The notes: generated from the sequence alone by a model not told the origin. Counted from the stretch's first letter, positions 30,446 through 57,073 are shown. The stretch is DNA of 64,000 bases from Bacteroidota bacterium (GCA_029237775.1 JAQZBR010000009.1:7708-71707); one strand, 5' to 3'. Numbers and translations: made by a program.

Positions 30446-32689
30446 TTAAACCCTCACGCCAATAACTAAAACATCATCTACCTGTTCGTGGTTACCTTTC
30501 CACTCATTAAAATATCTGTCGAGCTCATGTTTCTGGGCATCCAGAGATTTTGAAGATATTTGGAGTAACAAGCTTTTTAGATTCTTTGTCATCAGCTTCT
30601 TTCCTTTATCCCCGCCAAACTGATCTGCAAAGCCATCAGTGAACGTATAAACAGTATCACCTTTTAGAAGGTTTGTCGACTGCAAAGTAAAAGGCTTCAA
30701 TTCGCCCTGATGAATTCCAACAGGAAACTTATCAGGCTTAAACTCTATCAATTGATTATTCCTGACAATGATCACAGGGTTATTAGCAGCTGCAAATTCC
30801 AGGCTGTGTTTTTGAAAATCAAAAGAGCATAGAACTGCATCCATACCATCTTTGGATTGTTCTTCTGATCCATCCGTGTTCAATGCTTTGATGATTTCTT
30901 CCCGGACGTTATTAAGTACCAAGTCGGGTCGCTCGATTTTCCTTTCATTGACAGTCTCATTCAATTTGGAAATATTCAGCAGACTCATGAAAGCTCCCGG
31001 AACACCATGCCCGGTGCAATCGCTGGTAGCCATTATAAACTGCGAATCTGTTTTATGCGCCCAGTAAAAATCACCGCTGACAATATCCTTTGGTTTATAC
31101 AGAACAAAATATTCCGGCAAATTCTTTCTGAGAAGAGTGTCAGAAGCAAGTAAAGCACGTTGTATCCTTTTTGCGTAATGTATTGAATCAAGGATTGATT
31201 TATTCTTTTCCTCTATCAATTCCTTTTGCAAGGTGATTTCCACATTTGCCTTCTTCTTTTCACGATATCTTTTAAAAGACACGAAGGCAAGGAACAACAT
31301 TAAAAGTAACCCGGTTACAACCGCATAATTCACTACGCGTTGCCTGATTATTCTTTCTCCTTTGATCTCGTTATCCTTCTGAAGAAGATCAATCTCCGCC
31401 TGCTTCTTATCTGCTTCATACATCGCCTGCATCTGCCCGAGGCGCTTATTTAAAGCATCATTATTGAGAGAGTCGGAAAGCTCCAGGGCAAGCTTTTGAT
31501 TCTGAAAAGCCTTTTGATGATCACCCGAAGCGGAATATATATTTGCCAGCGTCATGTAATCATTCTTCAACTCATTTTTATCATTCAGAAATTTCTGATA
31601 CGACAAACCCTTCTCCGCATATGTTTGAGCCTGCTGCAGTTTGCCGGTCTGTAAACTAAGTTCTGCAAGCGACATGTAACAACCGGCAATGTAATAATTA
31701 TCATTGTTCTTTAATGCTTCACTCAATGCAACCGAATGGCACTGAAATGCCTTTTCATAATCCTTCATTTCAGCATAAACCGACCCGATATTACTTAACA
31801 GCATTGTGGCTGAAAAATCCATCCCGATCTTTTTATACAAACGCATGCTTTCATTATAATTCTTTAAAGCGAGCTCATACTTACCCTCGTTTTTATAAAC
31901 GATCCCGAGATTATTATAAACATTCGCCTGGATATCATCCCTGCCAAGTTCCTTAAACAGTTCAAGGCTTCTTAAGCTATATTCTTCAGCCAGCTTATAC
32001 TGTTTCTGCTCTTCATAAATAATCCCGATGTTGGCGTAAATAAAACCGTCCTGCGTAGGATCTTTTTCCGTTTTATTAAGCTTTAATGACCTGAACAGAC
32101 AATCCAGCGATTTTCCATAGTCACCGAGATTCTGATACACAACAGATAAATTTGTAAGAGCAGTTATCTGTGTTTTTACTGAGTGAGTCTGCTCAGCTCT
32201 TTCAATCGCCATTTTATAGTAACGCTCTGCCTTCGCATAATCAGACATATCAAGATATACATTGGCTATATTCACATATACCTTTCCCTGCTTTTCCGTC
32301 TGTCCAAGCTCAATACGGATCTGTAAACTCTTTTTAAAATTTTCGATCGCACTCTCATAGGCAGCTTTATTCCTGTCCGACACACCCAGCAGCTCATATG
32401 ATTGTGCGAGGCCTTCCTTATAATTTAATTTTTCGGATAAGCTCAAAGCCTCGTTTGCATACTTATCTGTATTGGCAATATTGGAATAAGAATACTCCCA
32501 TCCAATGTCGATAAGTGTTTTTACTTTCGAAGTATCTGCGTCTTCTTTCTTAATCACCTTTAACAAGCTGTCCAATACATCTGCATAGCTTACTGCGCTT
32601 ACAAGAATAAAGAATAAAAGAAGAGTGAATTTTTGAATATGAGTTTTCAAAGCCGGTTTGCTATATGCAGTAAATATAAAAAATCCCAA
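30446..32689 (-). CDS. Membrane sensor phosphatase: signal peptide, periplasmic TPR array, TM helix, coiled coil, PP2C/SpoIIE-family Ser/Thr phosphatase domain. True start may be the TTG at ~32650.
   Basis: TPR-like YxxAxxYxxKA repeats. TM VVNYAVVTGLLLMLFLAFVSF. PP2C motifs SGDFYW, DCTGHGVPGAFMS, DGMDAVLC, FTDGFADQFGG. C-terminus VIGVRV. Confidence 0.8.
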   Translation of the reverse strand: MGFFIFTAYSKPALKTHIQKFTLLLFFILVSAVSYADVLDSLLKVIKKEDADTSKVKTLIDIGWEYSYSNIANTDKYANEALSLSEKLNYKEGLAQSYELLGVSDRNKAAYESAIENFKKSLQIRIELGQTEKQGKVYVNIANVYLDMSDYAKAERYYKMAIERAEQTHSVKTQITALTNLSVVYQNLGDYGKSLDCLFRSLKLNKTEKDPTQDGFIYANIGIIYEEQKQYKLAEEYSLRSLELFKELGRDDIQANVYNNLGIVYKNEGKYELALKNYNESMRLYKKIGMDFSATMLLSNIGSVYAEMKDYEKAFQCHSVALSEALKNNDNYYIAGCYMSLAELSLQTGKLQQAQTYAEKGLSYQKFLNDKNELKNDYMTLANIYSASGDHQKAFQNQKLALELSDSLNNDALNKRLGQMQAMYEADKKQAEIDLLQKDNEIKGERIIRQRVVNYAVVTGLLLMLFLAFVSFKRYREKKKANVEITLQKELIEEKNKSILDSIHYAKRIQRALLASDTLLRKNLPEYFVLYKPKDIVSGDFYWAHKTDSQFIMATSDCTGHGVPGAFMSLLNISKLNETVNERKIERPDLVLNNVREEIIKALNTDGSEEQSKDGMDAVLCSFDFQKHSLEFAAANNPVIIVRNNQLIEFKPDKFPVGIHQGELKPFTLQSTNLLKGDTVYTFTDGFADQFGGDKGKKLMTKNLKSLLLQISSKSLDAQKHELDRYFNEWKGNHEQVDDVLVIGVRV

Positions 32690-32727
32690 CGGCTTACCAT
32701 CGGGATTCTTATTTTATTAGATCATTG

Positions 32728-35700
32728 TTATTCTTCAGAAAGCAAAGTGACATGTCCGGTATAATTGTGCGGATGAGAATCAAAATCCCGTACTCCTATC
32801 TTATACACATAGACTCCATCCTCAGCAACCTTGCTTCCATTGTTGGCAGTCCCATCCCAGCCCGTTTGCATATCAGTTGTCTGGAAGATCATTTCACCCC
32901 AACGATCGAAGATCATCATCTTAAATTCCGTGATCTCATCTCCCTTAGCCGTGAAATAATCATTGATATTATTTCCATCCGGTGTGAATGCATTTGGGAT
33001 ATAAAGTGTGAATACAGGCCTTATCTCAACTAATTTCTGCAGTGTATCAAGACAACCGTCAGCGCTTGCGGCAATCAATGTAACGGTGTACTCTCCTTTT
33101 GATGCGTAAACGTGTTGCGGTGATTCAAGTGTTGAAAAAGACCCGTCATTAAAGTCCCAGGAGTAAGATGTCGCGTTTGTTGACTGGTTGTAAAATTTAT
33201 ATTCCGGGCTGATGGTTGTTCCATCGAGCGCTTCCGTTGCAAATTCAGCAACCGCAGGTTTGTAAATAACAATATGGCTTATGGTGCTTCCGGAGTTTGT
33301 ACAACCGGCTGCTGAAGTGATCGTCAGATCAACCATAAAGTCACCGGATTCTATATACGTATGTGAAGGCATCGTATAAGCAGATGTGCTGCCATCACCG
33401 AAATCCCAAAGAAAAGACGCGTTATAATTCGTACCTGAGTTTTCAATAAAATTCAATGGCTCCGCTGAACATCCTACCATAGATTGTGGATTAAGATCAA
33501 TGATGGGAAGCGGGTTAACTGAAACGGGAACCGAACCTGTTATACTATGTGAACAGGCATCGGTAACAGTTACAATATAAGTGGTGCTGGTTATCGGACT
33601 AACTGTGAACGGACCGGAACCGGATCCTAATCCATTATTCCAATTGAGCGTTACGGGGCCGGTGTTACCGGTAACAGCTGCAGAAATAGTAGCCGTGCCT
33701 CCTGAACAAATTGCGTTGGCACCGCTTACTATTAAATTGGAAGCAGTAAGTGATGTGACATTTATTGAAACCGTGGCAGCAGAACTTGCACATCCGTTAC
33801 CATCAGTTGCTGTAACACTGTACGTTGATATCGTTGAAGGACTCACCGTCTGATTCGCTCCGTTTCCCACACCCACCCAGGTATAAGTGTAATTTCCATT
33901 TCCTCCTGAAGCGTTAGCGGAGATCTGTGTGTTTTGACCAAGACAAATAGTAGTGCTCCCTGATGCGACAATGTTTATCGGAGCAGGTTGTGTTACAGTA
34001 AGGTTGGCAGTTATTATACATCCGCTTCCATCAGTTACAATGGCTGAATAAGTTCCGGGACATAAGTTGATCGCATTAGCGCTTGTCCCGCCATCAGGTA
34101 ACCACTGATATGTATAACCGGGAGTACCACCACCAGGTATCACAATTCCTTCACCGTTGCAACTTCCATAGCATGTTACTGGAAACGCAGCTGAAGCAAG
34201 AGAGAGCGGAGCGGGTTCCGTAATGGATACCTGTGCAATAATAGTACAATTGTTTGCATCTGAAACAGTAACAGCATAATTACCCGGAGCGAGTGGAGAG
34301 ATCGCCTGACTATTCTGAACCGGAGAGGTGTTCCATGTATAAGTATAACTTCCGCTTCCACCGGATGCAGAAGCGATCGCCTGACCATCGCTTAAACCGT
34401 TGCAACTGACATTGCTAATAACCAATCCATTCGCAATTAAAGCCGGAGGTTCCGAAATATTTACGGAAGCAGTAACTGAACACCCGCCACCATCTGTAAC
34501 TATGCAGGTATAATTACCGGCATTCAAGTTATTAGCTGATGCCGAATTATTCTGGCTCTGAATATTCCAGTTATAAGAATAATTTCCCCATCCACCCGCC
34601 ACAGTCACTGCTGCAGAACCATTAGTAGCTCCGTTACATAATACATTCGTTTGTGATGTTGAAAAGGTAATTGGCGAGGAGGGCTGGATAACGGTAGCGC
34701 TTCCTGTTGTTACACATCCGTTCGCTGTTGTTACAGTCACAGAATATGTTCCTTGTGATAGTCCGGTGATAACTGCAGTTGTGTCACCGTTCGACCATTG
34801 ATAAGAATAAGGCTGCATACCACCATTAACGTTAGCTTCAATTGATCCATCGTTCGCACCAAAACAGGTCACGTTTGACGAATCGATTTGTATGTTCCCA
34901 GGTGCGGCACCTGAGCCAACGGTCGCAGTTGCAGATAAAGAACAACCACCGGCATTTGTCACTGTAACAGTGTATGTGCCGGCCTGCAATCCGTTTTGCC
35001 CGCTGTTTACACTACCCGCAGACCATTGATATGTAAATGGACCGACACCGGAAGTTACCTGAACATTAGCTGTGCCGTTTGATGCATTACAATTCGCATC
35101 AGTGGAAGATGTAGCAATGGTAAGGCCGGAAACGGTAATGCAGAAAGAATATGTCTGAGACCCGTTATAAGGACAGTTATCATCACGAACTGTTACAGTA
35201 AAACACTGCGGTGCTGAGCTGATATCTGAAACAGAAGGCGTCCAGCTAAAAGTACCTGAAGGCCTTGATGTGCCCGATGTTGTAAAGGATGCGCCCGCAA
35301 TGGCGTTGTTCCAGTTGAGGATGACTGACTGTGAAGAATCAACATCAAAGGAAGAAACAACGAAACTTAAAGGAACACCAGCGCATGCATTCACTGAATA
35401 TGTATTTGTATTGTTTATACCATTTACGTATGGGTTGCTATTTGTGCAATTAATCGTTCTGAGCTGAATATCGCGCATCACACTTCCGATCATAACACCA
35501 TTTCTCCATTCCTGTACAAGCACAGCGAAGACTGTAACTTCAAGACTGGTGGGAAACATGCACATATCACCGCTTACGATATCGAATGATACTGCCGGTG
35601 ATGAAAGCAAAGGCTGTGAGGCTGAATATGAATTATTGTAAACAACACTTGTTGTTGAGCTTGTAGCGGGTGTGATCAATGAATAAGAAAGTGAGTCGCC

Positions 35701-36288
35701 ATCGGCATCAAATGATCCATTATTAAAGCAATAGGGCTGTCCCACACACACAAATGGGATCGGAGGATTAGAAAAGTAAGGAGAGCTGTTGCAAGGAAAA
35801 TCAAGGTTATTCAAAACTGCTTCGACATAGATATTTTCGGCAGAAGGATTTATGATCGTGTTGATCGCGGCATTCCGGCAGCAAAGACTGAAGCTGAACG
35901 TCCAGTCGTTACATTGCATAGGAAGTGTAATTACTCCACTGTAGATATATTCCTGCACACCGGGATACGTACCGCCCGAGCATTGTGTCGTCATACCGGA
36001 GCATATTGAAGACACTTCTGTCCCTGTTCCGTTGATTGGATTTAATGTAAGATTAATGTTTTGTCCGCATGACGCGGAAGAAATATTTATCGTGGCTGTA
36101 GTTGGAGCAGCAACTCCCGCGCAGTCGCGGTAAAAGGAGAGGTTGATCTGGTATTGATTTCCGCCCAAACATTGATAGGTAATATCAGCGCTTTGGGCAT
36201 GTGATGCAAATGCTTCATTCTGTGATTGAATGAACATTACAATGAAACTAATCCAAAAGAAAACCCTGTGAGTAATTTGCGTATTCAT
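32728..36288 (-). CDS. Large cell-surface adhesin-like protein: Cys-rich N-terminal domain, about 8 SprB repeats, two PKD domains, T9SS type-B (gliding motility-associated) C-terminal domain
   Basis: Signal peptide. Repeats of C.G..(N/D)G.......GG..PY.Y.W. PKD-like W(D/N)FGDGS segments. C-terminal YIPNAFTPDGNNINDYF...FDRWGEMIF...GWDG...GVYVYKI is the TIGR04131-type domain. Confidence 0.8.
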   Translation of the reverse strand: MNTQITHRVFFWISFIVMFIQSQNEAFASHAQSADITYQCLGGNQYQINLSFYRDCAGVAAPTTATINISSASCGQNINLTLNPINGTGTEVSSICSGMTTQCSGGTYPGVQEYIYSGVITLPMQCNDWTFSFSLCCRNAAINTIINPSAENIYVEAVLNNLDFPCNSSPYFSNPPIPFVCVGQPYCFNNGSFDADGDSLSYSLITPATSSTTSVVYNNSYSASQPLLSSPAVSFDIVSGDMCMFPTSLEVTVFAVLVQEWRNGVMIGSVMRDIQLRTINCTNSNPYVNGINNTNTYSVNACAGVPLSFVVSSFDVDSSQSVILNWNNAIAGASFTTSGTSRPSGTFSWTPSVSDISSAPQCFTVTVRDDNCPYNGSQTYSFCITVSGLTIATSSTDANCNASNGTANVQVTSGVGPFTYQWSAGSVNSGQNGLQAGTYTVTVTNAGGCSLSATATVGSGAAPGNIQIDSSNVTCFGANDGSIEANVNGGMQPYSYQWSNGDTTAVITGLSQGTYSVTVTTANGCVTTGSATVIQPSSPITFSTSQTNVLCNGATNGSAAVTVAGGWGNYSYNWNIQSQNNSASANNLNAGNYTCIVTDGGGCSVTASVNISEPPALIANGLVISNVSCNGLSDGQAIASASGGSGSYTYTWNTSPVQNSQAISPLAPGNYAVTVSDANNCTIIAQVSITEPAPLSLASAAFPVTCYGSCNGEGIVIPGGGTPGYTYQWLPDGGTSANAINLCPGTYSAIVTDGSGCIITANLTVTQPAPINIVASGSTTICLGQNTQISANASGGNGNYTYTWVGVGNGANQTVSPSTISTYSVTATDGNGCASSAATVSINVTSLTASNLIVSGANAICSGGTATISAAVTGNTGPVTLNWNNGLGSGSGPFTVSPITSTTYIVTVTDACSHSITGSVPVSVNPLPIIDLNPQSMVGCSAEPLNFIENSGTNYNASFLWDFGDGSTSAYTMPSHTYIESGDFMVDLTITSAAGCTNSGSTISHIVIYKPAVAEFATEALDGTTISPEYKFYNQSTNATSYSWDFNDGSFSTLESPQHVYASKGEYTVTLIAASADGCLDTLQKLVEIRPVFTLYIPNAFTPDGNNINDYFTAKGDEITEFKMMIFDRWGEMIFQTTDMQTGWDGTANNGSKVAEDGVYVYKIGVRDFDSHPHNYTGHVTLLSEE

Positions 36289-36487
36289 AATACCCTCCGT
36301 TTCTTGAAATTGTTAAACAATAAATTAAGAACTACATCATTAAACGACCAGTAAAATAAAGGGTTACAGGAATATCAATAAAAATGTACAGAGGAGCTAT
36401 ACCGAATGATGTATATATATAATGTATAGATGAAGGATGTGAGATGCTATCATCCCGATAACCCGATTTTGTGTTCTAATCGCTATT

Positions 36488-38593
36488 TTATACTCTCACG
36501 CCTATAATTAAAACATCATCTACCTGGTCAAGAGAGCCTTTCCAGTCATCGAAGCGTTTTGCCAATACACCTTGCTGCTCATCGGGTGATAAAGGAGCCA
36601 TCCCGGTAAGCATTTCTTTCAGCTGATTGTATTTGAATTTTTTCCCTTTCGGTCCACCGAACTGATCCGCATAACCATCGCTATACAAATAAACACAATC
36701 ACCTTTCTTTAATTGAATGCTGTGATTGGTGTATTCATCAACCTTCCCATTTGTGTTAACACCGATAGGAAACTTATCTGCTTTGATCTCAGTCAGCACC
36801 GAATCGCTCACATAGTACAATGAATTAAATGCACCGGCATACTGAAGTTCCAGCGTTGTTGTATTCAAGGTGCATAACGACAGATCCATTCCATCTTTCA
36901 CACCTTTGCCCTCTTCCGATTGCCTGAGTGTTTTTGTTACGCCTGCATCGAGGTGCTTGAGGATCTCGGAAGGCTTCGTTAAATGAACTTCATTGATGGC
37001 CTGTGTAAGTAAATTAAAACCAACCACACTCATCAGTGCTCCCGGAACTCCATGACCGGTACAATCCACAGCTGCGAAACATACAACATCATTCTTATGC
37101 TCTATCCAGTAGAAGTCACCGCTTACAATATCCTTCGGACGGTAAAAAATAAAACTATCGGGAAGTATTCTTTTCCAGACCTCCATCGGTGGAAGAATTG
37201 ATTCCTGAATGCGCTTTGCATAATTGATACTGTCGGTGATCTCTTTCTTTTGTAAAGTTATTTCGGTGTTGCGATGCTCTAACAATTGATTCGCTTTCTG
37301 CTTTAGTTTATTCCGGTTGTAGAATAATGCAGCGATCGCAAACACCAACAAAACAGCAACCCCAAGGATCATCAACCAAAGTTTATTTCGGTTTAACTGC
37401 AACGACTGAATCTCACTGTCACGCGTAAGAATCGCGATCTCCTTTTCCTTTTTTTCTGATTCATATTTAGTTTGCATTTCCGTCATTTCCTTAATGCTTC
37501 CCTCACGGAACAAGCTATCCTTCATTTCACCGTACAAAGTCAGATAACTGTATGCATCTTTATAATTCTGCTGATCAGCATTCACTTTTGAAAGGATCCC
37601 ATAAACTATCTTCAGCCCCTCTGTCCTGTTGTTGGCCTTACACAACTCTAAAGCCTTGTGCAGAAATTCCATCGCCTCTTTCTTTTTATTAATAGAAAGA
37701 TATGTTTGCGCCATATTGATATAGCAGGTCGAGATGCTGGCGTTGTCTTTGATCTTCTCTTTTATTGCTAATGCTTTAAAAGTATATTCAAGAGCGAGCT
37801 CAGGCTTCTTTTGAAAATCGTAAATCATTCCGATGTTCATATTACTTGTGGAAGAGCCCACCTCATCATTAAGCGATGTATAGATCTCAAGTGATTTCAA
37901 ATAATTATTGAGCGCCATCGTATCTTTTTTCTGATCCCAGTAAACGTTTCCAATATTAATATAGCTAGCTGCCACACCAGACAGATTGTTAAGATGATCC
38001 CAAAGCTTAAGAGCCTTGGTATGATAAAAAATAGCGAGCGCATGATTGCTCTGTGAATCATAAATATTTCCTATCGCGCTGTAATTCTTCGCCATTCCTT
38101 CCGAATCGTTAAGCTCTTCCCTGAGCTTCAGTGATTGAAACTGATAATTTAAAGCGAGCGGAAGATCACCGGTCGCCCGGTGGATCAATCCTATATTACC
38201 ATAACATTTTGCCGCTCCGGACTTATCACCTGATGCAAGGAAGATTTTGAGTGCTTTTGAAAAGTTATCTCTTGCCTTTGCATAATCTCCGTGCTGCCAC
38301 TCGAGCACACCGATGTTATTGATCGCACTTGCTTCACCTTTCTTAAAATTTATTTTCCGGGATAGTTGCAAGGCCTCGTTTGCGAAGGATCTTGCCTTAT
38401 CGGGTGACTTTTGAAGATATGCCCTGCTCAGATCATTTTGAAGATTAATCTTTAATGTATCAACAACCGTTTTGCTTAAGAGCGCTTCAAGTGAATCTGT
38501 TTTATTTTGAGCTGCCCCTGTCAGCCCAAACAAAATTAAGGCATGTAAAAGAAAGATCCTGCTTATGAACACTGTGTTGATTTTTTTATTCAT
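36488..38593 (-). CDS. Membrane sensor phosphatase (periplasmic TPR array, TM, coiled coil, PP2C/SpoIIE domain), paralog
   Basis: Signal MNKKINTVFISRIFLLHALILFGLTGAAQ. TPR repeats. TM LWLMILGVAVLLVFAIAALF. SGDFYW, VDCTGHGVPGALMS, DGMDLSLC, SDGYADQFGG. C-terminus LIIGVRV. Confidence 0.8.
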   Translation of the reverse strand: MNKKINTVFISRIFLLHALILFGLTGAAQNKTDSLEALLSKTVVDTLKINLQNDLSRAYLQKSPDKARSFANEALQLSRKINFKKGEASAINNIGVLEWQHGDYAKARDNFSKALKIFLASGDKSGAAKCYGNIGLIHRATGDLPLALNYQFQSLKLREELNDSEGMAKNYSAIGNIYDSQSNHALAIFYHTKALKLWDHLNNLSGVAASYINIGNVYWDQKKDTMALNNYLKSLEIYTSLNDEVGSSTSNMNIGMIYDFQKKPELALEYTFKALAIKEKIKDNASISTCYINMAQTYLSINKKKEAMEFLHKALELCKANNRTEGLKIVYGILSKVNADQQNYKDAYSYLTLYGEMKDSLFREGSIKEMTEMQTKYESEKKEKEIAILTRDSEIQSLQLNRNKLWLMILGVAVLLVFAIAALFYNRNKLKQKANQLLEHRNTEITLQKKEITDSINYAKRIQESILPPMEVWKRILPDSFIFYRPKDIVSGDFYWIEHKNDVVCFAAVDCTGHGVPGALMSVVGFNLLTQAINEVHLTKPSEILKHLDAGVTKTLRQSEEGKGVKDGMDLSLCTLNTTTLELQYAGAFNSLYYVSDSVLTEIKADKFPIGVNTNGKVDEYTNHSIQLKKGDCVYLYSDGYADQFGGPKGKKFKYNQLKEMLTGMAPLSPDEQQGVLAKRFDDWKGSLDQVDDVLIIGVRV

Positions 38594-38627
38594 TGATTTT
38601 AAAATCTTCCTGTAAATTTTTCCTCCG

Positions 38628-40556: not shown

Positions 40557-40575
40557 TTCTTAATCCTTCTGTTTA

Positions 40576-43500
40576 TCAGATCCTGATACCAATTACCAAT
40601 ATATCATCCACCTGCTCCAGATCACCCTGCCATTCAGCATTTCTATTCGTCAAAATTTCTTTTTGTTCAGCCATTGGCTTCTGATGAATGCTGATCAATA
40701 ATTCCTGAAATTGTTTGTATTTGAACTTTTTGCCTTTCGGGCCACCAAACTGATCGGCATAGCCATCGGTAAACAGATAAATGCAATCACCTTTTTGAAT
40801 TTCCCATTCATGATTGGTGAAGCGTTGCAGTTCTTCTCCTATAAAAGCGCCAACAGGAAATTTATCTCCATTGATCTCGATCACCTGATTATCTCTTATC
40901 AGCCACAAAGGATTATTTGCACCCGCAAACTCCATTGTTGACTTTTTATAATTGATAGCACAAAGCGCGATGTCCATTCCATCACGCACGGTGGCCTCTT
41001 CAGGATTCTGATTTAATTTTTTTGAAAGCTGTGAATTGGTTTCATTTAAGATCAACGCAGGTTTTGCAAGACCCAGAACATTTACCGCCTGGGTCAAAAG
41101 ATTGTGAGCAACAATACTCATAAAAGCTCCCGGCACTCCATGTCCTGTGCAATCTACAGCCGCTATGAGCGTCTGAGGCCCCCATTGTTCAAGCCAGTAA
41201 AAATCTCCGCTTACAATATCCTTCGGTTTATAAAACACAAATGAATCGGGGAGCAGTTGTTTTATGCTTGAGTCAGATGGCAGGATCGCTTCCTGAATAC
41301 GTTTCGCATAATGTATACTATCAGTAATATCTTTATTCTTTTCATCGATCTCAGAATATGCGCTCTGCAGCTTTTCTTTTTCTTCCCGAAGCTCTTTGGT
41401 TCTTATCGCTACCTCTTCCTTCAAGCGTTGACGGCTTCGCTGCAGGCTTTGTTCGCGGAACTTTATAAATCCGTAGATAACAGATACACCCAGAAGTATT
41501 GTAATTATATAGAACCAGGGCCTCTTCCAGAACGGTGGTACGATCTCAAAAGAATAAGCGACAGGTGTTTCATTCCACACTCCATCATTGTTTGATGCTT
41601 TTACAAGAAAAGTATATTTTCCCGGAGGAAGATTCGAGTATGTGGTGCTGGTTGATTTTCCTTCGGGGAGCCAATCCTGGTCGAAGTTCTGAAGCATAAA
41701 GCGGTAGCGGACCTTATCGGGAATGGTTTGTGACACACCCACAAAATCGAATGTGATGTGATTTTTATCGTACGGTAACACAAGATTTCGCGGTAAGCCG
41801 TTAACGATGCTATCAGAGTATTGGCTGAAATTCACAGCCTCAAGAAATAAGCGGATTCCTGTGATCTGTGTTTGCGGAGGAACCTTGTTCTGATATTCAA
41901 AATCGGGATTATAAATTGTAACCCCGTTGATCGTTCCTATCCAAAGCTTGCCGTCAACATCGCGGTAAATTGCATTTTGATTGCATTCAAGCCCAATAAA
42001 ACCTTCTTCTTTGCCATAATGCTTCAGCCTGACTTCCTTCTGATTAACAAAGGAATTTATATCAAGCCGGTCAATTCCATTGTTGGTGCCGATCCATAAA
42101 TATCCATCATTATCCGCATTCACATAATAAACAGTATTTGAGCTTAATCCGTTCAGCTCATTTATTGTGATGAATTTTTTCCCGTTATAAACGGCAACTC
42201 CATAGTCGGTGCTGATCCAGAGATAACCAAGATGATCCCTCACCAGGTTTCTTATTCTGGGAAATCCTTCGGGACGTGTGATTGACGTGAATTTCTTCCC
42301 ATCATACTTTGTGATCTTGTCAACAGAACCGAACCAGAAGTCGCCAAAATTATCCTGGTAGATTGCGTTTACTCCTTTTGATGAAAGTCCGTTCTTAGAA
42401 TCAAAAAGAGTAAAGGTCTTCCCATCAAACATATCAACTCCGTTCTCGTGCGCTATCCAGACATTCCCCTTTCTATCAGTTAGCAGGGCGGGAATACGAA
42501 CACCGTGAAGGCCATCCTTCAGATAATAATTCTTGAATTTTTTCCCGTCAAAAACACTGATGCCGCTGGCAGATGTCCCCATCCAGATATTCCCTTTTTT
42601 GTCTTCAGTGATCGACCACACGTTATTAAACGCAAGGCCATCCTTCTGGCTATAATTGGTGAAAACGGCAGTGTCCCTTGCAATGCTTTCACTATAGTTG
42701 AATTTAGAAACACCGCCACCCCAGGTCCCGATCCAGAAATTATCTTTACTGTCTTTGTAAACAGACATCACGGTATTATGAACAAGTCCGTGCGCCTCAT
42801 TAAAATTTATAAAACGGTCATTTTGGTATTTACTTACTCCACCTGAGAATGAGCCAAACCACATATTCCCTTCCCTGTCTTGTGTGATCGCATCGATCAA
42901 TGTTCCGCACAAACCATTGGCTTTAGTGATCGTACGCATTCTTCCGTAAGTGATCTTGAGAATACCCTTTGCCGTACCTGCCCAGATATTTCCGAGTGAA
43001 TCTTTATATAATTTGTAAACCGTTTCAAGCTTTTTATCAGTGATGAGCTTAAATGACTGATCACCGGTATAAGCTTTTGAAGGATCATATTCATGGATCC
43101 CTCGATAGGTGGTGACCCAGACCTTGCTTCCGTTAATAAGTATGTCGCGGACTTTAAGATCTATTAGGCCATCCTTTGAAGTAAAGTGTTTTATCGTTTT
43201 TCCGTCATAACAAAAAACACCGTTCAGCATTGTGGCGATCCAGGTATTCCCGAGCTTGTCCTGCTTCACAGACCACACCTGATAGCTTCCTAAAGAATCA
43301 TTTCGGGCAAAAGCTCTGAATTTGTTACCATCATACAACACAATTCCGGAACTGGTGCCGATCCAGTAATTCCCATCACTATGCTTATACACACAATAAA
43401 TTCCGCTTTCATTAACGAGCGGATCCTTAAAAGATTCTATTTTTTTATTGTTGATGCGGCAAAGGCCCTTTGTTGTCCCGAACCATATGTTCTGACTATC

Positions 43501-43764
43501 GTATTCAAAAATGGTATTGACGCGGTTATTGTTCAGTCCGTCACGTGTGCTGTAATTTGTAAACTTCACACCGTCAAAACAGCTTACTCCGCCTCCATTG
43601 GTCGCAAACCACATGTTTCCGCTGTGATCCTGAATCAAATCAATGATCTGTGATTGAGGCAAGCCATCACCGATCGAATAATTTTTAAAATTAAGCAGTT
43701 GGGCGTTTGCTATAAAGCAAAAGCAAAAAAGGCAGAAGGATATGTAGATCTTTTTAAAGGACAC
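40576..43764 (-). CDS. Membrane sensor phosphatase with periplasmic two-component-regulator beta-propeller repeats plus Y_Y_Y domain, TM, coiled coil, PP2C/SpoIIE domain. GTG start.
   Basis: Signal MSFKKIYISFCLFCFCFIANAQ. Many G..W.GT..G(L/V)..(Y/F)(D/N) propeller blades. Y_Y_Y-like YRFMLQNFDQDW...YTFLVKASNNDGVWNE. TM. SGDFYW, VDCTGHGVPGAFMS, DGMDIALC, TDGYADQFGG. C-terminus LVIGIRI. Confidence 0.8.
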   Translation of the reverse strand: MSFKKIYISFCLFCFCFIANAQLLNFKNYSIGDGLPQSQIIDLIQDHSGNMWFATNGGGVSCFDGVKFTNYSTRDGLNNNRVNTIFEYDSQNIWFGTTKGLCRINNKKIESFKDPLVNESGIYCVYKHSDGNYWIGTSSGIVLYDGNKFRAFARNDSLGSYQVWSVKQDKLGNTWIATMLNGVFCYDGKTIKHFTSKDGLIDLKVRDILINGSKVWVTTYRGIHEYDPSKAYTGDQSFKLITDKKLETVYKLYKDSLGNIWAGTAKGILKITYGRMRTITKANGLCGTLIDAITQDREGNMWFGSFSGGVSKYQNDRFINFNEAHGLVHNTVMSVYKDSKDNFWIGTWGGGVSKFNYSESIARDTAVFTNYSQKDGLAFNNVWSITEDKKGNIWMGTSASGISVFDGKKFKNYYLKDGLHGVRIPALLTDRKGNVWIAHENGVDMFDGKTFTLFDSKNGLSSKGVNAIYQDNFGDFWFGSVDKITKYDGKKFTSITRPEGFPRIRNLVRDHLGYLWISTDYGVAVYNGKKFITINELNGLSSNTVYYVNADNDGYLWIGTNNGIDRLDINSFVNQKEVRLKHYGKEEGFIGLECNQNAIYRDVDGKLWIGTINGVTIYNPDFEYQNKVPPQTQITGIRLFLEAVNFSQYSDSIVNGLPRNLVLPYDKNHITFDFVGVSQTIPDKVRYRFMLQNFDQDWLPEGKSTSTTYSNLPPGKYTFLVKASNNDGVWNETPVAYSFEIVPPFWKRPWFYIITILLGVSVIYGFIKFREQSLQRSRQRLKEEVAIRTKELREEKEKLQSAYSEIDEKNKDITDSIHYAKRIQEAILPSDSSIKQLLPDSFVFYKPKDIVSGDFYWLEQWGPQTLIAAVDCTGHGVPGAFMSIVAHNLLTQAVNVLGLAKPALILNETNSQLSKKLNQNPEEATVRDGMDIALCAINYKKSTMEFAGANNPLWLIRDNQVIEINGDKFPVGAFIGEELQRFTNHEWEIQKGDCIYLFTDGYADQFGGPKGKKFKYKQFQELLISIHQKPMAEQKEILTNRNAEWQGDLEQVDDILVIGIRI

Positions 43765-48300: not shown

Positions 48301-48307
48301 AAAAACA

Positions 48308-49501: not shown

Positions 49502-49599
49502 ATACCCTCATATCAATTCCGTAACACTTTATCGCTCTTTTATTTCGGCTCGTCAAATAATATTGATAAAGTGCAGGAAGTTAGGTACTTTTACCAAAC

Positions 49600-50577
49600 A
49601 TGAAAAGCTTTCTGATTGCGTTGACAGGCGTTTTTTGCATGAATTGCTATGCACAACAAATACCTGCTCCGGAAGAAAATATTCCTTACCTGGTTACCTT
49701 TGCCAAAGATGGTGTTAAATCATGGGGTGATGATGACTTTTCCCAAACGTGGTTTTTTGTTGTTCCGAAATATCAGGTGAAGCCGGTTTATCTAAGAATC
49801 TTTGATCCGGAAACAGGCGGAGAACTTGATGAAAAAAAAGTCGAGTTCAACTCAAAGACCCAATACTCTATTTACGGAGGTAAAACCTGCTTTACAACAA
49901 AAGATGTTCGCGATAATAAACCTACGGGAAATTATAAAAGCGGCAATCTCCTTTACACAAAAACTTTCGGAAGCAACGAGATCTATGATGGGGAATGGTA
50001 CACCTTTGGGCCTTTTAATCCGAAAGAAGGTGAGTTCGTAAACGAATATGGGGGTTACATCTTTAAGGTCATAGCAGAAGGAATCAGCGGTGATGACGGA
50101 AATCTTTACACGTATTTTTTAAGTGAATCGCCCGTAGAAAACAAACCTGTGGAAGGTGGAAATGCTTTTACATTTGAATATACATTTCGCCTTTCAGATA
50201 AGCCGGATAACGTTGCACATCTTTACCCTTTCATTGAAGAGAATGTGATCTCTGTTAAGATCTCGAATTTTGATTTCGACAATGACGGCAACGTCAACAT
50301 CATTTCTATCGCCAAGAAAAAAGAACTCAGTAATTCCTCCGGTGACAATATCTGGGCAACGAGCGAGCACAAAATTATTGAACAGGAAAAGAAGACCACA
50401 CTTGATGTTCAATTCCTTAAGAGCAAGACGAAGGTGATTAAAAACAATAATGTTACCTTGTTTGTCACCAACCAATATGGCGACATGCTGCCCATATACA
50501 CAATGCCTATTGGCGGTTCTCCAAACAGTAACTATAAAGTGCAGTTTAACCAGAAGAAAAAAACCACCACTTATTAA
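49600..50577 (+). CDS. Hypothetical lipoprotein, translationally coupled to the downstream propeller-PP2C sensor
   Basis: MKSFLIALTGVFCMNCYAQ signal. Stop TAA is 2 nt before the ATG of 50580. No family recognised. Confidence 0.5.
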   Translation: MKSFLIALTGVFCMNCYAQQIPAPEENIPYLVTFAKDGVKSWGDDDFSQTWFFVVPKYQVKPVYLRIFDPETGGELDEKKVEFNSKTQYSIYGGKTCFTTKDVRDNKPTGNYKSGNLLYTKTFGSNEIYDGEWYTFGPFNPKEGEFVNEYGGYIFKVIAEGISGDDGNLYTYFLSESPVENKPVEGGNAFTFEYTFRLSDKPDNVAHLYPFIEENVISVKISNFDFDNDGNVNIISIAKKKELSNSSGDNIWATSEHKIIEQEKKTTLDVQFLKSKTKVIKNNNVTLFVTNQYGDMLPIYTMPIGGSPNSNYKVQFNQKKKTTTY

Positions 50578-50579
50578 TT

Positions 50580-53500: not shown

Positions 53501-53735
53501 TAATATACAACTGGATAAAGGAGATATTATTTATATGTTTACCGATGGATATCCTGATCAGTTTGGTGGCGAAAAAGGCAAGAAGATCAAATCAGCCAAC
53601 ATGAAGCAAATGCTTGAGCAGATCCGAACACTGCCTTTTGACAAGCAGGAAATGATCGTAGATCGTTATTTTAACAGGTGGAAGGAAGGTTATGATCAGG
53701 TTGATGATGTTTTGTTCATTGCTATCAGAATCTAA
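50580..53735 (+). CDS. Membrane sensor phosphatase (beta-propeller repeats, Y_Y_Y, TM, PP2C/SpoIIE domain), divergent paralog
   Basis: Propeller repeats. Y_Y_Y-like YQYKLEGFDADW...YTFLLKAYNSDG. TM WWFIVLVLAAIFYAVYFYIKI. SGDFYW, ADATGHGVPGAFMS, DSVD (variant of DGMD), TDGYPDQFGG. C-terminus FIAIRI. Confidence 0.8.
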   Translation: MPKKFKLKVTNYLHALLFVLSSFNCFSQAYQFKSYNTDNGISQPYVYTINQDKNGYLWIGTGEGLCKFDGISFKSFYTTDGIAENFITSSYKDRKNNMWLGFNQGSVTVYDGKNFKSINTSGFTKSPVTAITADEKGNIWCATQNDGVFRISKIFEVTVFKLEFDRENIYSIAFIKNDQLLVGTANGLKLYQVTGNEQKPKFLRTIEEIPETQIKCIVKKNSSTSFWVGTEDSGLFLITPVSNNQFKITEVGADLGFVIPAIQAIYEDPKSNLWLATFGKGVYKLLSSGNRLSYQEYLHLDESNGLTNNYIKSLYNDHEGNVWVGTYGSGIIQITDNSFSFFKHQSKSYSNNVTSILIGKTKWFGLENGLLKIDMSTAQKWFFYNALNGFQNDRVTSLYQPDSSHLYIGTERNGVYLLDTKTDNFTKIPLSEDELCNSINCLTGYGNVLWIATKNGIFKLDPGKKITTHYTTETGLPHNNINYIYYDKGDRILIGTHSNFLSEINIKTDSIRNRKIYDATDLLTITGIIKGVDSNIWACTFGNGLFKINDNITRYTTEHGLASNYCYGITDDGSNNLWIGHRMGLSRFKVQKDIIEVFSKNEGITGDCNYNALVKDENGNAWFGTTDGAIRFDPHKDKKNIIPPIVNIASVKINDKDLQLTSEISLPYDNYKIRLDFIGISFKANSNILYQYKLEGFDADWSERTKTPFVQYGKLSDGEYTFLLKAYNSDGIGNNTPLKITINIEKPFWKKWWFIVLVLAAIFYAVYFYIKIREKNHRKFQAQLQKALNEKTREVIIQKEEIEKKNKDITDSIRYAKRIQDALLPDVKKLTTMFPESFIFFQPRDIVSGDFYWYEKYGDKVVIACADATGHGVPGAFMSMIGSTLLKDITSRKGVTSPAFALAVMDEEIRMLLKQHDGDHDQTQDSVDIVICEIDRKTNFVRICSTRRSVFVVHKDELKLIKKDNTDSQQYDTVNIQLDKGDIIYMFTDGYPDQFGGEKGKKIKSANMKQMLEQIRTLPFDKQEMIVDRYFNRWKEGYDQVDDVLFIAIRI

Positions 53736-53739
53736 AACT

Positions 53740-56700
53740 CTATACTCTGATACCTATCACGAGGATATCATCAACTTGTTCCAGGTTGCCCCTCCATTCT
53801 TCAATTGCTGTATCCAGGCGCTTTTTCTGCTCTTCCATCGGAAGTGCGGCAAGCTTTAATAACAAAGCTTCAAGGCTTCTGTATTTAAACTTTTTGCCAT
53901 CAGGTCCGCCAAACTGATCAGCAAAACCATCACTGAAAAGAAAGATCTGATCCCCTGACTGTAGATCTATCTCGTGATTTGTAAAAGGCTTAGACTCCAT
54001 TTCACTGAATGTTCCGATTGGCTGTTTATCGGCTTTAATTTTTATCATCTCGTTATTTCGCAGAACCCATAAAGGATTATTCGCTCCTGCATACTGAAGC
54101 TTATTATTCTCAAAATCAAATGCACATAAAGCCAGGTCCATTCCATCCCTAACTGTTATTTCATCTACATGCTGACGAAGCTGTTTTGACAAACCCCTGT
54201 TCATTCCGTTAAGAATCACTGATGGCTTGTCGATCCCATGTTCGTTCAAAGCCTGATTCAACAGGTTATATCCAACAATACTCATAAACGCACCCGGAAC
54301 TCCATGCCCTGTACAATCCACTGCGGCAACAAAGTTTTTCTTTCCATTTGTCTCCATCCAATAAAAATCACCGCTTACAATATCCTTTGGTTTATATAAA
54401 ACAAACGATGAAGGGAAGTAACGTTTGATCGTTTCGTTTGACGGCAGGATTGCCTGTTGTATTCTTCTTGCATAGTTTATACTATCCGTAATATCCTTAT
54501 TCTTTTTCTCAATTATATCCTTCTGCTGAACAACTTCAAAAGTTCTCGACTGAACTTCCTTTTCCAGAATTAACTTATCGCGTTTTAGTTTCCTTGTGCG
54601 GAAAGTCGTATAAATGTAGATACCTGCAAGTATAAGAAGGATCATGATCACGTAGAACCAGATCGTCTTCCAGAAAGGAGGTGAAATAACAATAATAAGG
54701 CTGTTGCCTTGCTCATTCCACACGCCATCATTGTTAGAGGCTTTAATTCTGAATATGTATTTGCCGGGATCAAGGTTAGTGTAACTAACATAACGCCTGT
54801 TACCAAGCTTGATCCAGTCTTTATCGAAGCCTTCCATTTTACACGCATATTGATTCTTTTCTGAGGCTGTATAATCAAGGGCTGCAAACTCAAATGAAAG
54901 AAAATTATCCGTGTAATCGAGATCAAGCTTCTTTCGATAAGAGATAGTTGTGTCACCCGGAAGCTCATTATTGAACAACTTGATAGAAGTAATAAAAACA
55001 GGTGGCCTGTTAGGATTTTTACGGATCGAAGCGGGTTTAAAAATGTTAAACCCATTCACTCCTCCGAAGTAGATCTTATCATCCTTTGTTTTCAGATACG
55101 CTCCCTGATTGAATTCATTGCTCTGCAAGCCATCTTTTACATCAAAATTCTGAAACGCATTGGTTGAGGGATTCAATTTGCTTAATCCGTTATTAGTGCT
55201 CAGCCAGATATTACCTTTTTCGTCCTTTACAATGCCGTAAACAACATTGTTCGGCAGGCCGTTCTTCTCACTGAACTGGATCACCTTTTTAGTGTGAACG
55301 TTCATTTTGTTCAGGCCGCCACCATCTGTGCCTATCCAAAGAAAGTTCCCATCAGGCAGAATGCTTCTTATTCTGTCGCTGCTTAAAGTTGTACTATCCT
55401 CTGTGTTTGATTTGAAATGAGTGAAGCCATCAACGCTTCGGTCATATAGCTCTAGCCCACCCCCGTTTGTTCCTGCCCATACCTTATTATCAGCATCAAC
55501 AGACAATGAGATAACTTTATTATTGCTGATCGAATTTGACTTTGAGGGATCAGACTTATAGCTTCGAAATATATTTTCTTCAGGGTAAAAATGATTCAAG
55601 CCTCCACCCCAGGTTCCTATCCATACAGATCCGTCTTTGTCTTCGCGAATGCACCAAACATCATCACTGCTGATACTGTTCGCATCATTCTCATCGTGAC
55701 GATATGAAGTGAAACTTCCGTTGGATTGCATCAGGTTTAGTCCGCCACCGTATGTACCGATCCATAACCGACCTTTAGAATCACGGAAAATACACCTCAC
55801 GATGTCGCTTGCCAATGATCTTTTATCATTCTCCTTTTTTCTGAAATAAATAAATTCATTTGTCTTTGGATTGAACTTGTTTAATCCGCCACCGTACGTG
55901 CCGATCCAGACTGTCTGGTCGGGATCTTCCCAAAAACCCATCACAACGTTTTCAGAAAGTGTGTTTACGTTTGATTGCTCGTGTCTGAAATGCCGGAAGC
56001 TTTCTTTAACAGGATCAAACACGTTGAGTCCGCCACCGAGAGTACCAACCCAATAAAGGCCGCGATAATCCTGATAGGCACACATGATCACATTGTGGCT
56101 CAAAGAATTGTTATCTGAAGGACTGTTTTTATAAACTGTAAATTCTTCAGACTTTCTATCATATCTGCAAAGGCCATCTCCGTAGGAGCCAAACCACATA
56201 TTGAAGTTCAGGTCTTCAAAGATTACCCATACATCATTACTGTTCAGTGAATTTTTTCCGGCAACAAAGTGTCGGAACTCAAAATTCACGGGATTGAACA
56301 TGTCCGCTCCGCCACCAGATGTAGCGATCCAGATCATTCCCTGATGATCCTGCGTGATCATCTTCACAATATTTTTACTGAGTGAATTGTTGTTTAAAGG
56401 ATCATTACTGAAGCGAGTGAAGCCTCTTCCACCTGTATTCATAAGGTTGAATCCCTGATCGGTCCCAACCCAGAGACGCTCGCGGTTGTCGATGAAAACA
56501 CAACTTACTTTATTGCTACTGATGGAGTTCAGATCCTGAGATGAATTGCGATAACATCTGAATTGCTTTGCCTTCTGATCATAATAATTCAATCCGTCCT
56601 GAGTGCCGATCCATAGGTTATCTTTACTATCACAAACGATTGAAGTAACAGCATCATTGCTGATTGAACCTTTATTGGAAGAGTCGTTTTTAAAGGTTTC

Positions 56701-57063
56701 AAATTTTCCGGACAATTTATTAAGCCTGCATAATCCTGAACCGTAAGTGCCGATCCAGATATTGCCGCTGCGATCTTCACACAGGGTTTGAATATAGTTA
56801 TCAGAGATGCTTGAAGTGATTTTGGGATCATGCTTAAAAACCTTGAAGCTGTAACCGTCAAATTTATTAAGTCCATCCTGCGTCCCTATCCACATAAAAC
56901 CTTCCCGGTCCTGAATAACACAATTGACCGTGCTTTGCGAGAGGCCTTGTAAAATAGAAATGTTATTGAATTTAATCTGTTGGGCCTTGATCGGGAAACA
57001 AAGCATCATTGCAAACACAATTGCAAAGCACTTTAAGTTTTTCAGACGATCATTTATCTTCAT
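53740..57063 (-). CDS. Membrane sensor phosphatase (beta-propeller repeats, Y_Y_Y, TM, PP2C/SpoIIE domain). ORF track start is a TTG at 57072; the likely start is the ATG at 57063.
   Basis: Signal MKINDRLKNLKCFAIVFAMMLCFPIKAQQ. Propeller blades. YACKMEGFDKDW...YIFRIKASNNDGVWNE. TM IWFYVIMILLILAGIYIY. SGDFYW, VDCTGHGVPGAFMS, DGMDLALC, SDGFADQFGG. C-terminus LVIGIRV. Confidence 0.8.
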   Translation of the reverse strand: MKINDRLKNLKCFAIVFAMMLCFPIKAQQIKFNNISILQGLSQSTVNCVIQDREGFMWIGTQDGLNKFDGYSFKVFKHDPKITSSISDNYIQTLCEDRSGNIWIGTYGSGLCRLNKLSGKFETFKNDSSNKGSISNDAVTSIVCDSKDNLWIGTQDGLNYYDQKAKQFRCYRNSSQDLNSISSNKVSCVFIDNRERLWVGTDQGFNLMNTGGRGFTRFSNDPLNNNSLSKNIVKMITQDHQGMIWIATSGGGADMFNPVNFEFRHFVAGKNSLNSNDVWVIFEDLNFNMWFGSYGDGLCRYDRKSEEFTVYKNSPSDNNSLSHNVIMCAYQDYRGLYWVGTLGGGLNVFDPVKESFRHFRHEQSNVNTLSENVVMGFWEDPDQTVWIGTYGGGLNKFNPKTNEFIYFRKKENDKRSLASDIVRCIFRDSKGRLWIGTYGGGLNLMQSNGSFTSYRHDENDANSISSDDVWCIREDKDGSVWIGTWGGGLNHFYPEENIFRSYKSDPSKSNSISNNKVISLSVDADNKVWAGTNGGGLELYDRSVDGFTHFKSNTEDSTTLSSDRIRSILPDGNFLWIGTDGGGLNKMNVHTKKVIQFSEKNGLPNNVVYGIVKDEKGNIWLSTNNGLSKLNPSTNAFQNFDVKDGLQSNEFNQGAYLKTKDDKIYFGGVNGFNIFKPASIRKNPNRPPVFITSIKLFNNELPGDTTISYRKKLDLDYTDNFLSFEFAALDYTASEKNQYACKMEGFDKDWIKLGNRRYVSYTNLDPGKYIFRIKASNNDGVWNEQGNSLIIVISPPFWKTIWFYVIMILLILAGIYIYTTFRTRKLKRDKLILEKEVQSRTFEVVQQKDIIEKKNKDITDSINYARRIQQAILPSNETIKRYFPSSFVLYKPKDIVSGDFYWMETNGKKNFVAAVDCTGHGVPGAFMSIVGYNLLNQALNEHGIDKPSVILNGMNRGLSKQLRQHVDEITVRDGMDLALCAFDFENNKLQYAGANNPLWVLRNNEMIKIKADKQPIGTFSEMESKPFTNHEIDLQSGDQIFLFSDGFADQFGGPDGKKFKYRSLEALLLKLAALPMEEQKKRLDTAIEEWRGNLEQVDDILVIGIRV

Positions 57064-57073
57064 CACCACCAAA

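Follow-up and report, generated by a model that had tools for sequence, protein, structure and literature searches.

Six clustered membrane sensor phosphatases with a SiaA-like PP2C module in a Bacteroidota genome

We analysed a 64,000-nucleotide stretch (the window) of the metagenome-assembled genome (MAG) of an uncultured Bacteroidota bacterium (GCA_029237775.1, JAQZBR010000009.1:7708-71707), which corresponds to positions 693,981-757,980 of the 774,766-bp contig Ga0456371_00000018 (IMG 3300045996; locus-tag prefix K0Q95). It carries six genes for membrane phosphatases of the PP2C (PPM) family, designated A to F for the open reading frames (ORFs) starting at 30446, 36488, 38628, 40576, 50580 and 53740. 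We regard it as moderately probable that the six are sensor phosphatases of the SiaA branch, which act in trans on a SiaC-type phosphoprotein of a SiaB-type kinase. In Pseudomonas aeruginosa, SiaC, a DUF1987 protein of STAS-like fold, is phosphorylated by SiaB and dephosphorylated at Thr68 by SiaA; in its unphosphorylated form it activates the cyclase SiaD (PMC7647112, PMC8457831).

SiaA-like catalytic module

The first-pass annotation of this DNA had described six membrane sensor phosphatases with a SpoIIE/RsbU-like catalytic module. All six ORFs were recovered, each with a C-terminal Pfam SpoIIE domain (PF07228; E-values 1.5e-13 to 1.6e-23, 51.6-84.1 bits against a gathering cut-off of 25), but the subfamily has to be corrected, as the module is SiaA-like by sequence and by predicted fold. 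The NCBIfam model of SiaA (NF038263) matches all six proteins over the helical linker and the PP2C domain (model positions ~375-657 of 658, E-values 4e-46 to 9e-66). The SpoIIE model TIGR02865 gives at best 33.3 bits (E-value 1.4e-8), below its cut-off of 490.8 bits, and the six proteins have one internal transmembrane (TM) segment, unlike SpoIIE with its polytopic (10-TM) N-terminal domain. When all PDB sequences were searched by phmmer, the only strong match was 6K4E, the PP2C domain of P. aeruginosa SiaA (3.4e-35), with SpoIIE at ~5e-9; no other solved PP2C appeared at E < 1, and RsbX, Rv1364c and RssB were not matched. In BLAST, three SiaA proteins (Pseudomonas, Azospirillum and Persicobacter) score 101-187 bits, compared with 27-51 bits for two RsbU proteins (Staphylococcus and Lysinibacillus).

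For an AlphaFold2 (AF2) model of phosphatase D (aa 771-1062; predicted local distance difference test, pLDDT, 94.3), 6K4E is the top PDB fold match (E-value 2e-25, template-modelling score 0.91, root-mean-square deviation 2.1 A). SpoIIE follows at 4e-13 with a template-modelling score of 0.5-0.6, and SpoIIE, RssB, RsbX and Rv1364c all lie at ~1e-10 to 1e-13. There are 152 PDB matches with E <= 0.001, of which all 50 listed are PPM/PP2C-type phosphatases or phosphatase-like domains, and the predicted structure has the alpha-beta-beta-alpha fold of the PPM family. In E-value, 6K4E leads by ~12 orders of magnitude in the fold comparison and ~26 in the sequence search; together with the family models and the BLAST scores, this places the PP2C module nearer to SiaA than to all other characterised PP2Cs. 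A similarity generic to proteobacterial PP2Cs was considered and rejected: in PLSDB, rhizobial PP2Cs (Aminobacter, Rhizobium, Sinorhizobium and Ensifer) score only 54-68 bits and have no SiaC on the same replicon, compared with 111-207 bits for the SiaA-like group, and from this gap the boundary of the subfamily is sharp.

The metal-ligand motifs listed in the first-pass annotation are present in all copies: SGDFYW, DCTGHG (DATGHG in E), DGMD (DSVD in E) and (T/S)DG(F/Y)(A/P)DQFGG. The active-site residues of P. aeruginosa SiaA are D457, D474, G477, D534, D600, G601, D604 and D653 (PMC7647112). In an alignment with three SiaA proteins their equivalents are invariant in all six copies, including D534 and D604 of the third metal, and no substituted catalytic aspartate was found. 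TDGFLDQAGG in two proteobacterial SiaA proteins is the counterpart of (T/S)DG(F/Y)xDQxGG, and the DGxxDQ core is also found in Persicobacter, while the two RsbU proteins have TDGVTE at this site.

Phosphatase E is the divergent copy. It departs from the family at 14 of the 75 columns that are at least 90% conserved (the other five depart at 7 or fewer), and it is without an 8-residue DKxPxG loop, the counterpart of the flexible beta7-beta8 loop of SiaA, which was proposed to affect substrate choice (PMC7647112). The expectation that all six enzymes should be active agrees with the intact metal ligands and is safest for five of them; because of the changed columns and the lost loop, E may differ from the other copies in specificity or activity.

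Association with SiaB and SiaC

Evidence for the substrate comes from the gene neighbourhoods of homologues. In PLSDB, all of the proteobacterial replicons with a strong SiaA-like PP2C match (20 of 20) also carry SiaC, which lies within ~1 kb of the PP2C gene in both replicons checked (Azospirillum oryzae and Burkholderia sp. YI23). On a Persicobacter (Cytophagales) plasmid (locus L007), a TPR-TM-PP2C gene with the architecture of A, B and C is followed by genes annotated as "SiaB family protein kinase" and "DUF1987". At locus L120, a Reg_prop/Y_Y_Y-PP2C gene lies directly upstream of siaB-siaC, and its product can be aligned with F over the entire length (36% identity over 1238 columns, 691 bits). 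Phosphatase genes are also adjacent to siaB/siaC at L119, L125 and L114. A different arrangement is found on a Bernardetia plasmid, which contains a stand-alone SiaB-DUF1987 pair and five SiaA-like PP2C genes elsewhere on the replicon.

Among 80 metagenomic SiaC loci, SiaB is beside SiaC in 68 and a SiaA-like PP2C is present in 9, mostly in the order PP2C-SiaB-SiaC. The phosphatases linked with SiaC carry various sensor modules, namely PAS, Pkinase-AAA-GAF, 7TMR-DISM, a DUF4154 fusion, TPR and, at L120, Reg_prop/Y_Y_Y. We also summarized 80 Bacteroidota genome loci chosen by the PP2C module, which are those kept from a larger scan; their best identity is 58%, and this MAG is not among them. 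SiaB/SiaC genes lie within 10 kb in 4 of these 80 PP2C loci, compared with a chance expectation of ~0.3-0.9 on the rough assumption of 1-3 SiaB-SiaC pairs per 4-Mb genome. Most SiaC homologues of Bacteroidota retain YFNT(S/A)S, the phospho-acceptor motif. An output through a SiaD-type cyclase is unlikely, because no such cyclase, and no GGDEF gene, lies beside the Bacteroidota SiaB-SiaC pairs that were inspected.

The SiaC neighbourhoods themselves are diverse. SiaC proteins near phosphatase clusters share 20-32% identity with each other and with the Bernardetia type, which is 65-100% identical among itself. Two SiaC paralogues occur in tandem at L058:14326-16195 (minus strand) and L008:5878-7390, and L058 also encodes a 370-aa SiaB-like protein with two DUF6272 domains. 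In the SiaC of L076 the phospho-acceptor Thr is replaced. At L118:1886-3853, a DUF4154 domain is fused to PP2C directly upstream of SiaC. DUF4154 proteins (YfiR/HmsC-like, periplasmic) are the commonest small neighbours of the homologous phosphatases (8 of 261 small ORFs, in loci L014-L093), with none in the window, which suggests YfiR-like periplasmic regulators for some family members. An apparent pseudo-phosphatase is encoded at L115:1709-4024 (plus strand), where a TPR-TM protein with degenerate PP2C motifs and no Pfam SpoIIE match at E <= 1e-5 stands beside SiaC-SiaB-SiaC. Finally, in a group of syntenic metagenomic loci (L137, L142-L144, L149, L150, L153, L157, L174, L175 and L178), a STAS gene is located ~6.5 kb upstream of SiaB-SiaC, often with a second one 4-7 kb downstream; both phosphoprotein types therefore coexist in one neighbourhood in some lineages.

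Domain architecture and proposed mechanism

The common C-terminal plan given in the first-pass annotation, one TM helix, a helical linker and PP2C, is present in all six proteins, and an N-terminal signal-like hydrophobic segment can be added to it. There are two types of sensor, not one: by Pfam, A, B and C contain TPR, and D, E and F contain Reg_prop beta-propellers together with Y_Y_Y. The NCBIfam FimS model NF053520 matches A, B and C over the TPR and TM region (E-values 1e-26 to 1.7e-36). Each internal TM segment is followed by a positively charged stretch, and therefore the sensors are predicted to be periplasmic and the phosphatases cytoplasmic.

The linkers from the TM segment to PP2C are 24, 24 and 27 residues long in A, B and C, and 43, 36 and 35 residues long in D, E and F. 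Their heptad a/d hydrophobicity is 0.45-0.62, compared with 0.26-0.33 overall. In the model of D, residues 2-57 form a single unbroken helix, in which the linker continues into the conserved ITDSIxYAxRIQ helix of PP2C. No HAMP domain (PF00672) was found in the six proteins by Pfam scan, and some database homologues do carry HAMP. Dimerisation controlled by a coiled-coil linker has been proposed as a general principle for such phosphatases (PMC12143880), and the PP2C domain of SiaA is dimeric via helices alpha1-alpha3 (PMC7647112).

Based on these features, the six proteins would be dimeric, single-pass membrane sensor phosphatases of the SiaA branch. The TPR array (A, B and C) or the beta-propellers with Y_Y_Y (D, E and F) would read an extracytoplasmic signal in the periplasm, and this signal would pass through the TM helix and the helical linker of 24-43 residues to the first PP2C helix. 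In line with proposals for RsbU and related phosphatases, the linker would fix how the dimer and its switch helix are arranged, which in turn would govern metal binding and activity. Once active, the phosphatase would dephosphorylate a small phosphoprotein in the cytoplasm that has a STAS-like fold. The most probable candidate is a SiaC-type (DUF1987) protein that carries its phosphate on the conserved Thr of YFNT(S/A)S, placed there by a SiaB-type kinase (DUF6272); the genes of this pair would lie at another place in the genome. In such a partner switch in trans, several sensors would act on one phosphoprotein or a few. Which substrate is used, how many sensors feed one switch, what they sense and what lies downstream are inferences, and the link to SiaC is statistical and comparative.

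Search for partner-switch components

The first-pass annotation had reported no partner-switch component in cis, and this holds for the 64 kb: no STAS, RsbW-type, sigma-factor or Pkinase domain was found in any ORF of the window, nor was SiaB (DUF6272), SiaC (DUF1987) or HATPase_c_2. The search combined Pfam on all ORFs from 150 aa upward and on small intergenic ORFs, tblastn, and hidden Markov models (HMMs) on stop-to-stop ORFs of at least 60 aa. The flanks, 7.6 kb on the left and 4.7 kb on the right, likewise contain no SiaB/SiaC and no STAS partner. In the left flank there is a run of small minus-strand genes (L099:190-4600, window-equivalent ~-7400 to -3000) of 115-181 aa without Pfam match. 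Their translations are near-repeats of each other (…VYVPAA(L/F)TVG…PETIPGP.QLNVAP…), and a long repetitive gene, called antisense or in fragments, may underlie them. The substrates had been called unknown and encoded elsewhere. The second part stands, as none is in the window; their class can now be predicted, with SiaC and a SiaB kinase as candidates in place of STAS and RsbW.

In the right flank, an RsbW-like GHKL kinase gene (137 aa, PF13581, HATPase_c_2) with intact N, G1 and G2 boxes was found at window-equivalent 64787-65200 on the plus strand (L013:3483-3896, minus strand in that locus), 0.8 kb past the window edge and 7.7 kb from F. Of the canonical STAS-kinase pair that, if sited just outside, would have spoken against the first-pass reading, only the kinase is there, and neither a STAS nor a sigma-factor gene was found beside it. 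The gene starts 7 nt after that of a DUF4175 membrane protein (1137 aa, ~61366-64779, plus strand), which is truncated by the window edge. Another small RsbW-like match, in L035, was discarded as a histidine-kinase fragment at a contig end.

This kinase is central to the best of the competing explanations, a classical partner switch in which the six phosphatases act on a STAS anti-anti-sigma protein of an RsbW-type kinase, with the flanking gene as the kinase and a sigma factor or another RsbW-bound target as the output. We consider this unlikely, although it has points in its favour. All six proteins have the Pfam SpoIIE domain, the kinase has its nucleotide-binding boxes in full, and its 84-97% identity in many Bacteroidia MAGs implies an important role; in addition, SiaC and STAS proteins share a common fold (PMC7647112), so cross-recognition is conceivable. 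However, the kinase is coupled to DUF4175, and the ferritin/DUF4175/RsbW-like triad is kept in a relative without an adjoining phosphatase cluster. With its conservation tied to DUF4175 and not to the phosphatases, and with no STAS gene next to it, the kinase was judged an unlikely partner. The homologous loci agree: a STAS-RsbW pair is near none of the 80 Bacteroidota PP2C loci (HMM, and Pfam on small ORFs with the 25 commonest families listed), and a STAS gene is near one (L082), between pyrB and a tRNase Z-like gene. The STAS HMM behind these counts had two RsbV seeds, both from Bacillota, so that divergent STAS proteins may have escaped it; it was supplemented by Pfam on the 261 small neighbouring ORFs. 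The PP2C module is also much nearer to SiaA than to RsbU or SpoIIE, and the rhizobial PP2Cs without SiaC on their replicon score far below the SiaA-like group.

Several observations speak against the assignment to SiaA and SiaC, and they limit our confidence in it. The scores to NF038263 are 158-223 bits, below the equivalog cut-off of 700, and the six are without the HAMP and the N-terminal sensor of SiaA; judged by these matches the proteins are not SiaA orthologues, and only the output module is SiaA-like. About 95% of the homologous phosphatase genes have no SiaB/SiaC within 10 kb, and for this reason the link to SiaC rests on an operonic minority and on Proteobacteria. Contigs of this MAG are absent among the best 120 of 220 protein matches to the Bernardetia SiaC, in which the named matches are Cytophagales or unclassified Bacteroidota MAGs, and no Ga0456371 contig is found among at least 600 metagenome pattern matches to the SiaC alignment. 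The genome does encode an RsbW-type kinase, so that the substrate may be a STAS protein, since SiaC and STAS share a fold, and orphan STAS genes exist in Bacteroidota (L082 and the syntenic metagenomic group). The loop lost in E is one thought to influence substrate choice. No experiment on any Bacteroidota member was found in the searched literature.

Divergence and distribution of the paralogues

The six PP2C modules share 37-58% identity, and the sensors share 23-28%. These values mark old paralogues, and a recent tandem duplication, for which a check had been proposed, is rejected. Sensor type does not fully account for the PP2C relationships: B, with its TPR sensor, groups with D and F.

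Such divergence would also fit a second explanation, in which the copies serve different phosphoproteins (SiaC paralogues, STAS proteins or targets of Hanks kinases), and E has a changed specificity or is mainly a non-catalytic scaffold or sensor. Besides the low identity of the PP2C modules, the altered columns and missing loop of E, the divergent SiaC types and two-SiaC loci in Bacteroidota, and the degenerate TPR homologue at L115, which indicates that pseudo-phosphatases occur in the family, are in line with it. However, the metal ligands are intact in all six, E included, at most 7 of the 75 conserved columns are changed in five of the six, the window has no Hanks kinase, and there is no direct evidence for an alternative substrate. 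We regard a split of substrates as unlikely, slightly more so than the classical switch.

The family is very large, with at least 8000 database matches at E <= 1e-10, and most of the named ones are Bacteroidia. Their N-terminal modules include HAMP, REC, PAS, TPR and Y_Y_Y, and their lengths are mainly ~570-860 aa and ~1010-1170 aa, with a minority shorter or longer; the two classes correspond to the two types in the window. At least two phosphatase genes are clustered in 15 of the 80 Bacteroidota PP2C loci, with five in tandem in two loci, and at least two further copies exist on another contig of the same MAG, making at least eight in the genome. The neighbourhoods of homologues are highly variable. 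Most family members have no nearby partner, and SiaB-SiaC pairs are likewise mostly stand-alone in Bacteroidota. Generally, the absence of partners in cis is the rule for the Bacteroidota family, not a peculiarity of this cluster.

The multi-input signalling network suggested in the first-pass annotation is a reasonable reading of six sensors of two architectures. More tentatively, the Bacteroidota PP2C arrays (at least eight copies in this MAG, up to five in tandem elsewhere) might all feed one SiaB-SiaC hub with an effector other than a diguanylate cyclase; the Bernardetia-type SiaB-SiaC pair is 65-100% identical across several Cytophagales families. If true, this would be a phylum-wide layer that connects many inputs to one switch, alongside two-component systems.

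The cluster is a typical member of a widespread Bacteroidota signalling family and reveals no new principle. Its interest is that names such as "RsbU", "SpoIIE family", "nprA" and "serine/threonine protein kinase" hide a very large family of SiaA-type sensor phosphatases in Bacteroidota, the sensors of which are the same modules as in polysaccharide-sensing hybrid two-component systems and FimS-type kinases. The SiaA/SiaB/SiaC relationship gives a concrete candidate substrate, and it raises the question of what SiaC controls in Bacteroidota, in which it is not accompanied by a SiaD-type cyclase. As a clean and representative case, the window could guide work in cultured relatives.

Gene organization of the cluster

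Phosphatase A (747 aa, 30446..32689, minus strand) consists of a signal peptide, a periplasmic TPR sensor, a TM segment at aa 451-475, the 24-aa helical linker and the SiaA-type PP2C at aa ~500-747 (Pfam TPR_12 1.3e-41, SpoIIE 4.4e-19; NCBIfam SiaA 4e-46, model positions 402-657). Phosphatase B (701 aa, MDF2438748.1, K0Q95_3124; 36488..38593, minus strand) has a signal peptide, a TPR sensor, a TM segment at aa 402-428, a 24-aa linker and a SiaA-type PP2C (TPR_12 1.5e-50, SpoIIE 1.8e-19; SiaA 1.4e-58). Phosphatase C (642 aa, MDF2438749.1; 38628..40556, minus strand) has the same order, with TM at aa 339-367 and a 27-aa linker (TPR_12 9.5e-28, SpoIIE 1.9e-18; SiaA 2.5e-51).

Phosphatase D (1062 aa, 40576..43764, minus strand) has a signal peptide, a periplasmic sensor of Reg_prop beta-propellers and Y_Y_Y, TM at aa 749-770, a 43-aa linker and a SiaA-type PP2C (Reg_prop 7.3e-56, Y_Y_Y 4.6e-17, SpoIIE 6.7e-21; SiaA 9e-66). 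Phosphatase E (1051 aa, MDF2438757.1; 50580..53735, plus strand) combines the Reg_prop and Y_Y_Y sensor, TM at aa 748-773 and a 36-aa linker with the divergent SiaA-type PP2C (Reg_prop 1.1e-35, Y_Y_Y 3.5e-13, SpoIIE 1.5e-13; SiaA 6.6e-51). In phosphatase F (1110 aa, 53740..57072, minus strand), the Reg_prop and Y_Y_Y sensor is followed by TM at aa ~798-826, a 35-aa linker and a SiaA-type PP2C (Reg_prop 6.2e-60, Y_Y_Y 3e-17, SpoIIE 1.6e-23; SiaA 6.1e-61; PDB 6k4e 3.4e-35). Some public names are misleading: in GenBank C is "nprA" and E is "serine/threonine protein kinase", while in IMG B and C are "serine phosphatase RsbU (regulator of sigma subunit)" and E is "ligand-binding sensor domain-containing protein".

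Three gene groups are read as operons because their gaps are 1-99 nt. D, C and B probably form one operon, with gaps of 19 nt from D to C and 34 nt from C to B. OsmC (58260-58682), a Cys/Met pyridoxal-phosphate (PLP) enzyme gene (MetC-like, 57074-58270) and F, which starts 1 nt downstream of the latter, are probably another. Genes for an acyltransferase, a thioredoxin-TPR protein and a 325-aa secreted protein look like an operon together with E. The secreted protein (49600..50577, plus strand), the gene of which is also called by JGI, has a signal peptide and no Pfam or NCBIfam match; its stop lies 2 nt ahead of the start codon of E, and from this position, a role as a periplasmic accessory to sensor E or as its ligand-binding partner is conceivable.

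Between A and B, on the same strand, a gene for an SprB-repeat/PKD/CHU_C protein is embedded (32728..36288, minus strand; Pfam SprB 1.8e-47, PKD_4 1.3e-25, CHU_C 3.2e-16), a type IX secretion system (T9SS) cargo. It is given as context only. Local action of the phosphatases on such neighbour products (the SprB/PKD/CHU_C pathway, OsmC/MetC-like or thioredoxin-like proteins) without a partner switch is highly improbable: the cargo gene inside the cluster and the apparent co-transcription of F with OsmC and the PLP enzyme, and of E with the thioredoxin-TPR and secreted proteins, would fit it, but these neighbours are periplasmic, secreted or metabolic and not known PP2C substrates, they are largely absent around orthologues in highly varying neighbourhoods, and SiaC is the only recurrent neighbour that is a signalling phosphoprotein.

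Just before the cluster, at 17668-29535 (plus strand), is an alternative complex III cluster (multihaem cytochrome c, Fe-S/molybdopterin-like subunit, NrfD-like subunit, ActD, cytochrome c and an unassigned 410-aa ORF), followed by the genes of a caa3-type oxidase (cytochrome oxidase subunits II and I), an order typically seen in aerobic Bacteroidota. The other gene content of the window is consistent with Bacteroidota too, such as rimP-nusA-infB and T9SS cargo with CHU_C or Por_Secre_tail. No tRNA gene and no Rfam match was found in the window by tRNA and Rfam scans.

Comparison with known systems

The closest known relative is SiaA of the P. aeruginosa SiaABCD system (PA0172, 6K4E, NF038263). 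The linker and PP2C are homologous with 30-35% identity, all metal-binding residues are shared, including the equivalent of D604 within DGxxDQ, both are membrane-anchored sensor phosphatases, and homologues of the window architectures are found in PP2C-siaB-siaC operons. Unlike SiaA, the window proteins have TPR or Reg_prop/Y_Y_Y sensors, no HAMP and a short linker between TM and PP2C. The window is also without siaB, siaC and siaD in cis and without an evident diguanylate cyclase output, and six copies are present in 27 kb (at least eight in the genome), compared with one in Pseudomonas.

With RsbU, RsbP and SpoIIE of Bacillota, the six share PF07228, the PPM fold and an N-terminal regulatory module with a helical linker, and they too are expected to act in a partner switch on a small phosphoprotein with a STAS-type fold. 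However, the sequence relation is remote (27-51 bits for RsbU, ~5e-9 for SpoIIE), and the window proteins would use a periplasmic sensor acting through a TM helix, not RsbT, RsbQ or a polytopic membrane domain. Their N-terminal regions are exported TPR or Reg_prop/Y_Y_Y modules, in contrast to the RsbT-binding domain of RsbU or the PAS/RsbQ-dependent domain of RsbP. No STAS, RsbW and sigma genes are clustered with them as in the RsbU/RsbP switch, the lone RsbW-like gene being 0.8 kb outside the window.

On the sensor side, the six resemble the hybrid two-component sensors of Bacteroidota and FimS of Porphyromonas, with the same periplasmic modules and a single TM helix. D, E and F can be likened to the Bacteroides thetaiotaomicron BT4663 type, which we take to be a Reg_prop/Y_Y_Y hybrid sensor. 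The difference is in the output, where PP2C replaces the histidine kinase with receiver and AraC domains. A PP2C output on sensors of two-component type fits the idea that sensor and output modules are exchangeable (PMC12143880).

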